Made by a program: the position numbers and the translations under genes. DNA of 61,695 nucleotides, from NCBI RefSeq assembly GCF_003334385.1, contig NZ_QOWN01000027.1. One strand, written 5' to 3'. Below the pieces are notes generated by a model. That model was not told the origin of the DNA. It did no database searches and was given only the letters and a program-made list of their open reading frames with translations. This DNA comes from Escherichia coli. Lineage in GTDB: Bacteria > Pseudomonadota > Gammaproteobacteria > Enterobacterales > Enterobacteriaceae. Of the stretch, positions 54,079 through 61,014 are shown one piece after another (the first letter of the stretch is position 1; each line of letters starts with the position of its first letter).

Positions 54079-55764
54079 ATGATAACCATTCCCATTACGC
54101 TTCGTATGTTGATAGCAAAGTATCTCTGTCTGTTGAAGCCCTTTTGGCTGCGTAAGAATAATAAAACTTCAGTGTTGTTAATCATTATTATCCTCGCCAT
54201 GATCCTTGGCGTGGTTAAAATTCAGGTCTGGTTAAACGACTGGAATAATGATTTTTTCAATGCGCTAAGCCAGAAAGAAACCGATAAGCTTTGGCAGCTT
54301 GTCCTTTGGTTCCCTGCCCTGCTGGGGATCTTTGTATTAATATCCGTAAACAAAACATGGTTAATTAAACTACTGACTATTCGCTGGCGCGAATGGTTAA
54401 CAGATTACTACCTTAATCGGTGGTTTGCAGATAAAAACTACTACTTCACGCAGATCTACGGCGAGCATAAAAATACAGATAACCCTGACCAACGTATCGC
54501 TGAAGACATTCTCTTACTGATCAGCAAAACGCTCAGTCTTTCATTTGGCTTCATCCAGTCACTTAGCATGCTGATCACCTTTACCGTTATTCTTTGGGAA
54601 AGCGCGGGTACGCTCTCATTCACTGTTGGTGGAACAGAATGGAATATCCAGGGGTATATGGTCTATACCGTCGTGCTCATTGTGATCGGTGGAACTTTAT
54701 TTACCCATAAGGTGGGTAAACGTATTCGTCCGCTTAATGTGGAAAAACAACGTAGCGAAGCGACATTTCGAACAAATCTTGTGCAGCATAATAAGCAGGC
54801 AGAACTGATTGCGCTAAGCAATGCTGAGTCTCTACAACGCCAGGAGTTGAGCGACAATTTTCATACCATTAAAGAGAACTGGCATCGTTTAATGAATCGT
54901 CAGCGGTGGCTTGATTACTGGCAGAATATTTATTCGCGCTCGCTTAGCGTTCTTCCCTACTTTCTGTTATTGCCGCAGTTTATTAGCGGGCAGATCAATC
55001 TGGGCGGACTGATGAAATCGCGCCAGGCATTTATGCTGGTATCGAACAATTTAAGCTGGTTTATTTATAAATATGACGAACTTGCTGAACTGGCTGCGGT
55101 TATCGATCGCTTGTATGAGTTCCATCAACTCACTGAACAGCGCCCTACGAATAAGCCTAAAAATTGCCAACATGCGGTACAAGTGGCTGATGCGAGTATT
55201 CGTACGCCTGATAATAAGATCATATTAGAGAACCTGAACTTTCATGTTTCGCCAGGCAAATGGCTATTACTGAAAGGCTACTCTGGTGCGGGAAAAACCA
55301 CACTGCTTAAAACATTATCCCACTGCTGGCCGTGGTTTAAAGGTGATATTTCTTCTCCTGCTGACAGTTGGTATGTGTCACAAACACCGTTAATCAAAAC
55401 CGGCTTACTGAAAGAGATTATTTGTAAAGCACTTCCCCTGCCCGTAGACGATAAATCGTTGAGCGAAGTACTGCATCAGGTTGGTCTTGGGAAATTGGCT
55501 GCGCGTATTCATGACCACGATCGCTGGGGAGATATTCTTTCCAGCGGCGAAAAACAACGTATCGCCCTGGCACGATTAATTTTACGACGTCCGAAATGGA
55601 TATTTCTTGACGAAACTACCTCTCATCTTGAGGAACAAGAGGCTATCCGCTTACTGCGTTTAGTGCGTGAAAAACTACCCACAAGCGGCGTCATTATGGT
55701 TACACATCAACCCGGTGTCTGGAACCTGGCCGATGATATTTGTGACATTAGCGCGGTTTTATAA
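54079..55764 (+). CDS. yddA: ABC transporter with fused permease and ATPase, SbmA/BacA-like (561 aa)
   Basis: N-terminal transmembrane domain; C-terminal Walker A (GYSGAGKTT), signature (SSGEKQR) and Walker B (IFLDETTS). Confidence 0.85.
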   Translation: MITIPITLRMLIAKYLCLLKPFWLRKNNKTSVLLIIIILAMILGVVKIQVWLNDWNNDFFNALSQKETDKLWQLVLWFPALLGIFVLISVNKTWLIKLLTIRWREWLTDYYLNRWFADKNYYFTQIYGEHKNTDNPDQRIAEDILLLISKTLSLSFGFIQSLSMLITFTVILWESAGTLSFTVGGTEWNIQGYMVYTVVLIVIGGTLFTHKVGKRIRPLNVEKQRSEATFRTNLVQHNKQAELIALSNAESLQRQELSDNFHTIKENWHRLMNRQRWLDYWQNIYSRSLSVLPYFLLLPQFISGQINLGGLMKSRQAFMLVSNNLSWFIYKYDELAELAAVIDRLYEFHQLTEQRPTNKPKNCQHAVQVADASIRTPDNKIILENLNFHVSPGKWLLLKGYSGAGKTTLLKTLSHCWPWFKGDISSPADSWYVSQTPLIKTGLLKEIICKALPLPVDDKSLSEVLHQVGLGKLAARIHDHDRWGDILSSGEKQRIALARLILRRPKWIFLDETTSHLEEQEAIRLLRLVREKLPTSGVIMVTHQPGVWNLADDICDISAVL

Positions 55765-55801
55765 AAACAATAAAAGCCCTGCTGTACGGAGATATAAATA
55801 A

Positions 55802-58174: not shown

Positions 58175-58218
58175 TAGTTCGGATTTTACTTAACCGGGTA
58201 AATTCGCCCGGTTTTCGC

Positions 58219-61014
58219 ATGGAGATAATTATGAGAAACCTCTGTTTCTTACTGACGTTAGTGGCAACTCTGTTGCTCCCCGGGCGGTTGATTGCCGCCG
58301 CCTTACCGCAGGATGAAAAGTTAATTACCGGGCAACTGGACAATGGCTTGCGATATATGATTTATCCGCATGCTCATCCAAAGGATCAGGTAAATTTATG
58401 GCTGCAAATTCATACCGGTTCATTGCAGGAAGAAGACAATGAGCGCGGCGTGGCTCATTTTGTAGAACATATGATGTTTAACGGCACAAAAACATGGCCG
58501 GGTAATAAAGTCATCGAAACATTTGAGTCAATGGGCCTGCGTTTTGGTCGCGATGTTAATGCCTATACCAGCTATGACGAAACGGTGTATCAGGTGAGTT
58601 TGCCGACTACGCAGAAACAAAATCTGCAACAAGTGATGGCAATCTTCAGTGAATGGAGTAATGCCGCAACCTTTGAAAAACTCGAAGTAGACGCTGAACG
58701 TGGCGTAATTACTGAGGAATGGCGTGCCCATCAGGATGCGAAATGGCGCACCTCTCAGGCGCGCCGCCCTTTCCTGCTGGCAAATACCCGTAATTTAGAC
58801 CGTGAACCTATCGGCCTGATGGATACTGTCGCCACGGTCACACCGGCACAATTGCGCCAATTTTATCAACGCTGGTATCAACCAAATAATATGACCTTTA
58901 TCGTGGTCGGCGATATCGACAGTAAAGAAGCGCTGGCGCTGATAAAGGATAATTTAAGTAAGCTTCCGGCTAACAAAGCAGCTGAAAATCGCGTCTGGCC
59001 GACAAAAGCCGAAAACCACCTGCGCTTTAATATCATTAATGATAAAGAAAACCGGGTGAACGGCATCGCACTCTATTATCGCCTGCCAATGGTACAAGTG
59101 AACGATGAGCAAAGCTTTATCGAACAAGCTGAATGGAGCATGTTAGTTCAGCTGTTCAATCAACGTCTGCAGGAACGCATACAGTCGGGCGAGTTGAAGA
59201 CTATTTCTGGCGGCACTGCGCGCAGCGTTAAAATTGCACCCGATTATCAGTCGCTGTTTTTCCGTGTAAATGCACGAGACGATAATATGCAGGATGCTGC
59301 GAATGCATTAATGGCAGAGTTGGCAACCATTGATCAGCATGGTTTTTCTGCTGAAGAACTCGATGATGTCAAATCTACCCGCCTCACCTGGCTGAAAAAT
59401 GCGGTTGATCAGCAAGCTGAACGTGATTTACGTATGCTGACCAGTCGCCTGGCATCCAGCTCATTAAATAATACGCCGTTCTTGTCGCCGGAAGAGACAT
59501 ATCAACTTTCGAAACGTCTGTGGCAGCAAATTACCGTGCAAAGTCTGGCGGAAAAATGGCAGCAGTTAAGAAAGAACCAGGACGCATTTTGGGAGCAAAT
59601 GGTAAACAATGAGGTTGCCGCCAAAAAAGCATTGTCTCCTGCGGCTATCCTGGCGCTGGAAAAGGAGTACGCCAACAAAAAGCTGGCGGCTTACGTCTTC
59701 CCAGGCAGAAATTTATCGTTAACAGTAGACGCAGACCCACAGGCGGAAATTAGCAGCAAAGAAACGCTGGCGGAGAATCTGACATCATTAACACTTTCCA
59801 ATGGTGCCAGGGTTATTCTGGCAAAATCCGCGGGTGAAGAGCAAAAGCTACAAATTATTGCCGTATCGAATAAAGGCGATTTAAGTTTCCCTGCGCAGCA
59901 AAAATCACTTATCGCGCTGGCAAATAAAGCAGTTAGCGGAAGCGGCGTTGGCGAACTCTCCTCTTCCAGCCTGAAACGCTGGAGTGCGGAAAATTCGGTA
60001 ACCATGAGCAGTAAAGTCAGTGGCATGAATACGTTGCTCTCCGTTAGCGCGCGGACTAATAACCCTGAACCTGGTTTTCAGTTGATTAACCAGCGAATCA
60101 CCCACAGCACGATTAACGATAATATTTGGGCATCGCTACAAAATGCTCAAATTCAGGCGTTGAAAACGCTCGACCAGCGTCCAGCGGAGAAATTCGCCCA
60201 GCAGATGTATGAGACGCGCTATGCTGATGACCGCACGAAATTACTGCAAGAAAATCAGATTGCACAGTTTACTGCCGCAGATGCGCTGGCTGCCGATCGC
60301 CAATTGTTTTCATCTCCAGCGGATATCACGTTTGTCATTGTCGGTAATGTCGCAGAAGACAAACTCGTGGCGTTAATTACGCGTTACTTAGGATCAATCA
60401 AACACTCTGATTCGCCATTAGCCGCAGGTAAACCATTAACTCGCGCGACGGACAACGCATCGGTTACTGTAAAAGAACAAAATGAACCTGTGGCACAGGT
60501 TTCACAGTGGAAGCGTTATGATTCCCGGACACCTGTTAATCTGCCGACGCGTATGGCGCTCGATGCTTTTAACGTCGCACTGGCAAAAGATCTACGTGTT
60601 AATATTCGTGAACAGGCATCTGGAGCATACAGCGTTTCTTCTCGCCTCTCGGTTGATCCTCAGGCCAAAGATATCAGTCATTTGCTGGCTTTTACTTGTC
60701 AACCAGAACGACATGATGAACTGTTAACGTTAGCGAATGAAGTGATGGTTAAGCGTCTGGCTAAAGGGATCAGTGAGCAAGAACTGAATGAATACCAGCA
60801 AAACGTTCAGCGCAGCCTCGATATCCAACAGCGTAGCGTTCAACAATTAGCGAACACTATTGTAAATAGTCTTATTCAATATGACGATCCTGCAGCATGG
60901 ACTGAGCAGGAGCAATTGTTGAAACAAATGACGGTAGAGAATGTTAACACTGCCGTTAAACAATATCTTTCTCATCCGGTAAATACTTATACCGGAGTAT
61001 TATTGCCAAAATAA
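58219..61014 (+). CDS. pqqL: Periplasmic M16-family zinc metalloprotease (931 aa)
   Basis: Inverzincin motif HFVEHMMF near the N-terminus; signal peptide; 931 aa. Confidence 0.85.
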   Translation: MEIIMRNLCFLLTLVATLLLPGRLIAAALPQDEKLITGQLDNGLRYMIYPHAHPKDQVNLWLQIHTGSLQEEDNERGVAHFVEHMMFNGTKTWPGNKVIETFESMGLRFGRDVNAYTSYDETVYQVSLPTTQKQNLQQVMAIFSEWSNAATFEKLEVDAERGVITEEWRAHQDAKWRTSQARRPFLLANTRNLDREPIGLMDTVATVTPAQLRQFYQRWYQPNNMTFIVVGDIDSKEALALIKDNLSKLPANKAAENRVWPTKAENHLRFNIINDKENRVNGIALYYRLPMVQVNDEQSFIEQAEWSMLVQLFNQRLQERIQSGELKTISGGTARSVKIAPDYQSLFFRVNARDDNMQDAANALMAELATIDQHGFSAEELDDVKSTRLTWLKNAVDQQAERDLRMLTSRLASSSLNNTPFLSPEETYQLSKRLWQQITVQSLAEKWQQLRKNQDAFWEQMVNNEVAAKKALSPAAILALEKEYANKKLAAYVFPGRNLSLTVDADPQAEISSKETLAENLTSLTLSNGARVILAKSAGEEQKLQIIAVSNKGDLSFPAQQKSLIALANKAVSGSGVGELSSSSLKRWSAENSVTMSSKVSGMNTLLSVSARTNNPEPGFQLINQRITHSTINDNIWASLQNAQIQALKTLDQRPAEKFAQQMYETRYADDRTKLLQENQIAQFTAADALAADRQLFSSPADITFVIVGNVAEDKLVALITRYLGSIKHSDSPLAAGKPLTRATDNASVTVKEQNEPVAQVSQWKRYDSRTPVNLPTRMALDAFNVALAKDLRVNIREQASGAYSVSSRLSVDPQAKDISHLLAFTCQPERHDELLTLANEVMVKRLAKGISEQELNEYQQNVQRSLDIQQRSVQQLANTIVNSLIQYDDPAAWTEQEQLLKQMTVENVNTAVKQYLSHPVNTYTGVLLPK

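Follow-up and report, generated by a model that had tools for sequence, protein, structure and literature searches.

Here, we describe the yddA-yddB-pqqL locus of Escherichia coli within a stretch of 61,695 nucleotides (nt) from contig NZ_QOWN01000027.1, hereafter the window. Three open reading frames follow each other on its plus strand at 54079–55764 (561 residues), 55802–58174 (790 residues) and 58219–61014 (931 residues), with intergenic gaps of 37 nt (yddA-yddB) and 44 nt (yddB-pqqL). Many E. coli chromosomes, those of K-12 derivatives among them, carry the region 53500–61695 at 100% identity; on these, RefSeq names the genes yddA, yddB and pqqL and places the locus between ydeM and gadB. 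An initial annotation, made from the sequence alone, had described three co-directional, closely spaced genes encoding a fused SbmA/BacA-like ATP-binding cassette (ABC) transporter, a 790-residue outer-membrane receptor-like barrel and a 931-residue M16 zinc protease with an intact HxxEH motif, and had likened them to protease-associated import systems. Its coordinates proved exact, and each of these assignments is borne out below. The operon and its interpretation are already known, and this reading was put forward as a hypothesis by Grinter et al., who coined the term ‘protease-associated import system’, solved the structures of YddB (6OFR) and PqqL (6OFS/6OFT) (PMC6793856) and had previously recognized YddB, PqqL and YddA as homologues of FusA, FusC and FusD, arguing for a joint function from synteny (PMC5095587). 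Our analysis likewise favors, with fair but limited confidence, a Fur-repressed three-gene operon encoding an import system of the Fus type.

The first gene, yddA (54079–55764, plus strand), encodes a half-size type IV ABC transporter, in which an SbmA/BacA-like membrane domain is fused to an ATPase. The Pfam domains ABC_membrane_2 (PF06472, 1.8e-43), SbmA_BacA (PF05992, 2.3e-33) and ABC_tran (PF00005, 2.8e-18) were all found in YddA; the Walker A (GAGKTT), LSSGE signature, Walker B (FLDE) and H-loop motifs are intact and conserved across all five modules compared. The best solved relative is Rv1819c of Mycobacterium tuberculosis (6TQE), which matches at 2e-67 over nearly the full length, covering both the membrane and the ATPase domain. 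Rv1819c, the closest structural homologue of YddA, has been described as a cobalamin transporter. YddA was named a homologue of FusD by Grinter et al. in 2016, with synteny kept despite rearrangement (PMC5095587), and would be the inner-membrane importer of the system. Published reports on its function disagree, with drug export on the one hand (PMC9728188) and hints of uptake from metabolomics on the other (PMC10971958). In Burkholderia cepacia, YddA is required for ubonodin activity, and a 2026 analysis terms the family ‘of unknown function’.

The product of yddB (55802–58174, plus strand; GGAG 10 nt upstream of its ATG) is a TonB-dependent outer-membrane transporter resembling FusA; it has a signal peptide, a plug, a 22-strand barrel and a C-terminal phenylalanine. 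Over residues 29–790, its sequence is the same as that of the crystallized TonB-dependent receptor 6OFR, and a sequence search of the PDB returned a single non-self match, the ferredoxin receptor FusA (4ZGV, 5e-79). Among Pfam models only the Plug domain was recognized (1.3e-6). Since no Pfam barrel model and no NCBIfam family matched, YddB represents a divergent TonB-dependent transporter. Near the N-terminus, the putative TonB box EEMTVYA (residues 31–37) lines up with comparable hydrophobic strands of four homologues, and the segment that follows, P(V/I)P(V/T)PVN, is conserved among them. The published structure shows the plug within the 22-strand barrel and a FusA-like extracellular pocket ~28 Å across (PMC6793856).

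The third gene, pqqL (58219–61014, plus strand), encodes a periplasmic single-chain, four-domain M16 zinc protease homologous to FusC. Pfam placed one Peptidase_M16 and two Peptidase_M16_C domains in the protein, which carries a single HxxEH motif (HFVEH, residues 80–84) and the distal glutamate E167 within EEW, both invariant in five sequences, in keeping with the clam-shell of M16 (inverzincin) metallopeptidases. Residues 27–931 match 6OFS/6OFT, and FusC (6B03/6B05/6BRS) is among the top hits at ~1e-58. The N-terminus resembles a signal peptide, and the crystallized protein begins at residue 27. Fractionation and N-terminal sequencing of the protein after signal-peptide cleavage placed PqqL in the periplasm rather than in the cytoplasm, the location that would have spoken against the role proposed for it; the same study found a zinc-bound, active peptidase of narrow specificity (F/Y-F/Y-V/A) (PMC6793856). 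In RefSeq, the fifth codon (58231) serves as the pqqL start; it has GGAG 6 nt upstream and yields 927 residues. The 931-residue numbering of the literature corresponds to the start at 58219, and the difference falls within the cleaved signal peptide.

Upstream of yddA, a promoter scan found a single promoter-like site on the plus strand of the intergenic region, a candidate sigma-70 promoter at 54037–54066. It comprises the -35 element TTGCCA (54037–54042), an 18-nt spacer and an extended -10 element with a TG extension, TGgCACAAT (54058–54066), from which we infer a transcription start near 54073. Alignment with an Escherichia fergusonii-type locus (L011), whose YddB is 86% identical, showed that the TTGC-A of the promoter and the 10-nt TGGCACAATC are kept, whereas the spacer is not. 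Next to the predicted transcription start lies a putative Fur box, GCTAATGATAACCATTCCC (54075–54093, no strand assigned), with 15/19 matches to the 19-nt consensus GATAATGATAATCATTATC used in a Hamming scan. The site overlaps the annotated yddA ATG and ties for the best consensus match in the whole 61.7-kb window, and its left half, CGCTAATGATAA, is invariant in L011 while the flanking bases vary. A strict consensus search allowing at most 3 mismatches gave no match in the window; the Hamming scan recovered the 15/19 site. A perfect 10-nt Fur core, GATAATCATT, at 54045–54054 within the promoter spacer was dropped as a part, as it is not conserved in L011.

The search for a Fur box upstream of yddA, which the initial annotation had suggested, arrives in this way at a site that is already in the literature: Subashchandrabose et al. 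(2013) presented it as a putative Fur box that covers the start codon of yddA (PMC3855560), and Chen (2007) listed it as a 19.6-bit information-theory cluster at +8 (PMC2189734). Fur binding upstream of yddAB-pqqL was detected by chromatin immunoprecipitation, together with a possible positive effect of RyhB (Beauchene 2015, PMC4676285). The three genes are not independently transcribed, an arrangement that would argue against a functional unit. Reverse transcription PCR (RT-PCR) across both junctions demonstrated co-transcription, the genes are derepressed together in a fur mutant, and the operon is induced more than 30-fold in urine (PMC3855560). PqqL is furthermore induced by bipyridyl in BW25113 and CFT073, and by urine (PMC6793856).

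The comparison with the E. fergusonii-type locus also bears on the start of yddA. When positions 54079–54108 of the window are compared with 4282–4311 of L011, the frame of the upstream ATG reads MIIVTI-stop in L011, i.e. six codons, and the gene call in L011 uses the second ATG, the counterpart of position 54106, from which the identical N-terminus MLIAKYLCLLKPFW is encoded. Nucleotide identity between the two sequences is 67% in the 27 nt between both ATGs and 83% just downstream, and distant YddA homologues have N-termini of the shorter length. Because the upstream frame stops in L011, the N-terminus is identical and distant homologues are short, the functional start is probably ATG 54106 (552 residues), 27 nt downstream of the annotated ATG at 54079. 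With this start, the Fur box would not cover the start codon but would probably lie within a ~30-nt 5′ untranslated region (UTR), at about +2 to +20.

The boundaries of the operon are marked by two hairpins, whose significance was assessed by RNA folding against 200 shuffled sequences. On the upstream side, a hairpin at 53839–53870 (plus strand), 3′ of the ydeM stop at 53788, folds with a dG of -19.6 kcal/mol (z -6.2) and is likely the terminator of the ydeNM unit and the upstream operon boundary. On the downstream side, 7 nt past the pqqL stop, a 10-bp GC-rich hairpin followed by ATTTT (61021–61045, plus strand; dG -18.6 kcal/mol, z -4.8) is likely the operon terminator. In both cases, 0/200 shuffles folded equally well. 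A generic scan showed no enrichment over shuffles (19 promoter-like sites against 18.5 expected and 11 terminators against 8.4), and the short T-runs of the two flanking hairpins caused it to overlook both. The ydeNM genes were ruled out as part of the unit by the terminator hairpin and by the differing upstream neighbors in L011. Within the operon, folding of the two intercistronic regions gave no significant structure. An 8-bp hairpin with TTTTCG after it sits at 58192–58213, just ahead of the start codon of pqqL; it was rejected as a terminator, with a z of -0.75 and published RT-PCR reading through it (PMC3855560), but might modulate pqqL translation or mRNA stability. An Rfam search of 53400–61695 found no RNA family, even at E-values up to 0.1.

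Outside E. coli, eight neighborhood look-ups returned the synteny of the module already described in print. The order ABC transporter, receptor, M16 protease is kept in unrelated neighborhoods at YddB identities of 86% (L011), 60% (L005), 45% (L006, an Orbaceae genome) and 44% (L007). In Muribacter muris (L009), at 28% YddB identity, the receptor and M16 genes are followed by a convergent YddA-like gene. Linkage of receptor and protease with an adjacent SbmA_BacA plus ABC_tran gene was thus found in five further loci. Across L005, L006, L007 and L009, identity to E. coli amounts to 53/51/51/34% for YddA, 60/45/44/28% for YddB and 46/40/41/25% for PqqL, so that all three proteins rank these loci alike by divergence. 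These findings contradict the 2013 claim that the genes are confined to E. coli and Shigella (PMC3855560) and agree with Grinter et al. 2016 (PMC5095587) and 2019 (PMC6793856).

The putative Fur box recurs together with the module. In L005 (6163), L006 (5987) and L007 (6249), the single best Fur-box match of the 14–18 kb locus, with 16/19 positions, lies immediately upstream of the yddA-like gene, and in L004 and L010 the best match of the locus (15/19) lies upstream of the receptor. Whole-locus scans of L008 and L009 gave no good site. Taken together, this recurrence suggests that Fur control may be an ancestral property of the module. It is supportive rather than conclusive because AT-rich intergenic DNA favors such matches. 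Of the loci named here, L004 (8001–10364) carries a second YddB-like receptor of some E. coli, 70% identical to YddB, with its Fur-box-like site (15/19) at 7809. Its contig bears IS110 and IS66 transposases; no YddA or PqqL homologue was found in the 8 kb upstream, and the contig ends 0.5 kb downstream, where a protease is possible.

Altogether, what the parts are, where they are located and what activity they have, together with their co-transcription and Fur control, is shown here or in the literature. In the full model, iron scarcity would derepress the operon through Fur, and YddB, energized by the housekeeping TonB, would capture a small globular protein, probably carrying iron or a cofactor, and bring it into the periplasm. 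PqqL would then close around the imported protein and cleave it, and a YddA homodimer, acting without a periplasmic binding protein, would transfer the cofactor or peptides so released to the cytoplasm. We regard this model as reasonably probable. Our confidence is held at this level because no published work has demonstrated the passage of a protein through YddB, because the substrates tested were negative, with human ferredoxins, globins and plant ferredoxin all left uncleaved by PqqL (PMC6793856), and because no dedicated TonB homologue corresponding to FusB is annotated within ~9 kb on either side of the E. coli operon. A TonB-like gene was likewise absent from the called genes of L005–L007, L009 and L011; Grinter et al. 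2019 did not count FusB among the defining features of the wider family (PMC6793856).

Several further observations weigh against the model. As the initial annotation had stated for the substrate in E. coli, no cargo is established; none has been identified in the literature searched up to mid-2026, including work on yddB and pqqL since 2020, and a 2025 review gives the PqqL substrate as not available. Comparison with FusA and FusC and growth of deletion mutants under metal limitation had been suggested as further checks, and both, the latter under iron limitation, have already been published by Grinter et al. (PMC5095587, PMC6793856). In that work, yddB and pqqL deletions caused no growth defect in iron-limited lysogeny broth (LB), even in a background without the iron-uptake TonB-dependent transporters (PMC6793856). 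Dipyridyl drew no response from the operon in CFT073, although urine and the loss of fur did (PMC3855560), and drug export by YddA is reported in one study (PMC9728188). Finally, the operon is missing from ~13% of complete E. coli genomes, or about one in eight, through two independent deletions.

This loss was traced in 5,426 complete E. coli genomes, of which 5,410 have a match to at least part of the operon, but only 4,604 contain 80% or more of it. The first deletion allele removes window positions 53797–60097, from just past ydeM into pqqL, in ~566 genomes (junction at ~9001 of L002), and it is common among human clinical isolates. The second spans 53899–59851 and occurs in 160 genomes, including those of the adherent-invasive strains LF82 and NRG857C (junction at ~9108 of L003). 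Both clean deletions take out yddA, yddB and the 5′ two-thirds of pqqL, and they explain most genomes below 80% coverage; in addition, there are IS1 insertions within or close to yddB. The operon is dispensable in the laboratory, and many natural lineages do without it as well, which fits a niche-specific role. The deletion genomes represent natural knock-outs that might serve to compare fitness or to hunt for the substrate.

One possible variant of the model concerns the cargo, which could differ from the iron proteins tested so far and might be no iron source at all. A small folded protein from the host, the diet or the microbiota would be shredded in the periplasm, and a peptide or non-iron cofactor would be imported, with the housekeeping TonB serving without a FusB-type helper. 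This variant was considered because the YddA lineage imports peptides and corrinoid-type cofactors, but we judge it improbable. If it were true, the response of the CFT073 operon to urine but not to a chelator, together with the repeated loss of the operon, would reflect dependence on a niche-specific ligand.

A Fus-type import system has to be weighed against other uses of the same genes. The first is small-molecule uptake, in which YddB would import an iron chelate, a haem-like compound or a metallophore, YddA would carry it across the inner membrane and PqqL would be accessory or unrelated. This is how most TonB-dependent transporters work, and Fur regulation of the operon suits it as well. 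The closest characterized relatives of YddA include the cobalamin-type cofactor transporters Rv1819c and ABCD4, untargeted metabolomics tied yddA to the uptake of proline and other small metabolites (PMC10971958), and the betaproteobacterial YddB homologues lack a neighboring protease. The shape of the receptor points the other way, as its ~28 Å pocket is FusA-like and not siderophore-sized (PMC6793856). An M16 protease moreover accompanies the receptor and ABC genes across Enterobacterales, Orbaceae and Pasteurellaceae, and the missing growth contribution in iron-limited LB, even without the iron-uptake TonB-dependent transporters (PMC6793856), likewise speaks against such a role. We consider small-molecule uptake an unlikely explanation.

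A second alternative is the uptake of a peptide or protein unrelated to iron, of host, dietary or microbial origin and possibly a bacteriocin or antimicrobial peptide, which PqqL would degrade and YddA would bring in as peptides, for nutrition or detoxification, with Fur serving only as a host cue. SbmA, BacA, BclA and Burkholderia YddA do carry peptides inward, PqqL shows peptidase activity on aromatic-rich tripeptides (PMC6793856), and in CFT073 the operon ignores an iron chelator while rising more than 30-fold in urine (PMC3855560). Set against this are the Fur boxes that distant taxa keep upstream of the module, the induction of PqqL by bipyridyl in both BW25113 and CFT073 (PMC6793856) and the archetypal Fus system itself, which serves iron piracy (PMC5095587). 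On balance, we find a role without iron quite unlikely.

The genes could also be mere neighbors, with YddA acting as an ATP-driven multidrug exporter independently of YddB and PqqL. Minimum inhibitory concentrations and vanadate-inhibited efflux of ethidium and norfloxacin were reported in support of export (PMC9728188), and the type IV fold of YddA is the ‘exporter’ ABC fold; the nearest characterized relatives with this same fold are, however, importers. Co-transcription and co-regulation (PMC3855560), conserved three-gene synteny and co-varying divergence do not fit genes that merely adjoin each other. Other studies, as cited in PMC10971958, saw no drug phenotype, and in the 2026 analysis the function of the YddA family is still given as unknown. 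We consider an unrelated exporter very unlikely. A role in the uptake or processing of pyrroloquinoline quinone (PQQ) or its peptide precursor, the origin of the gene name, draws on weak similarity of PqqL to PqqF (NCBIfam TIGR02110, 5.8e-13, far under the cut-off), an older report of complementation of Methylobacterium pqq mutants and similar speculation in 2013 (PMC3855560), but is largely refuted by YncD/PqqU, and not YddB, being the receptor for TonB-dependent PQQ uptake in K-12, and with E. coli making no PQQ (PMC3855560) and PqqL grouping with FusC instead of PqqF, it is extremely improbable.

Around the operon, a few features belong to other units. RefSeq annotates YneP, a small protein of 40 residues at ~53754–53876 on the minus strand, antisense to the end of ydeM; upstream of yddA, it overlaps the ydeM terminator hairpin of the intergenic region. 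Downstream of the operon terminator, a separate control region of gadB begins, with a perfect GAD box (TTAGGATTTTGTTATTTAAA) at 61278–61297, ~80 nt upstream of the gadB ATG at 61377. The gadB gene runs past the end of the window; it is a known acid-resistance locus and lies outside the module. The GC content of the operon and its neighbors (50000–61695) is 34–48%, whereas the genome average of E. coli is ~51%. This low GC content is consistent with horizontally acquired or island-like DNA.

Nutritional import of whole proteins across the outer membrane in Gram-negative species is unusual, and its occurrence in E. coli would bear on the competition between host and pathogen for iron and on the understanding of orphan transporters, all of which hinges on finding the cargo. 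Relevance to host-pathogen interaction is indicated because yddB and pqqL mutants show reduced fitness in mouse bacteraemia (PMC3855560). As a re-identification of a characterized locus, the present analysis brings the cargo no closer, and its additions are minor: the module and Fur box in distant Gammaproteobacteria, the probable yddA start at 54106 and the loss of the operon described above. Its practical gains are a probable correction of the yddA start, which would place the Fur operator in the 5′ UTR, comparative support for Fur control as a property of the module in distant taxa, and the natural knock-outs.

Compared with known systems, the operon comes closest to the ferredoxin uptake system FusABCD of Pectobacterium (FusA 4ZGV, FusC 6B03/6B05), but YddB and FusA share only ~24% identity (PMC6793856). 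The gene order in E. coli is ABC transporter, receptor, protease, and the Fus operon includes the TonB-type gene FusB, which has no counterpart within ~9 kb in E. coli. Plant ferredoxin is not a substrate of PqqL (PMC6793856), and the niches differ as well, with E. coli living in the animal gut and urinary tract and the Fus system operating on plants. The betaproteobacterial homologues of FusA and YddB (P0043, P0046), with ~30% identity to YddB and a Fur-box-like site upstream in one of them (L010), adjoin a di-haem cytochrome c peroxidase (CCP_MauG) instead of M16 and ABC genes, as also described in PMC6793856. On the side of the inner membrane, sequence places YddA in the lineage of Rv1819c and SbmA/BacA/BclA/YddA, whose members take up hydrophilic compounds or peptides without a periplasmic binding protein. 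In contrast to Rv1819c, YddA lacks the ~70-residue N-terminal extension (the alignment begins at residue 73 of the Rv1819c chain), and in contrast to SbmA, it retains the ATPase domain.

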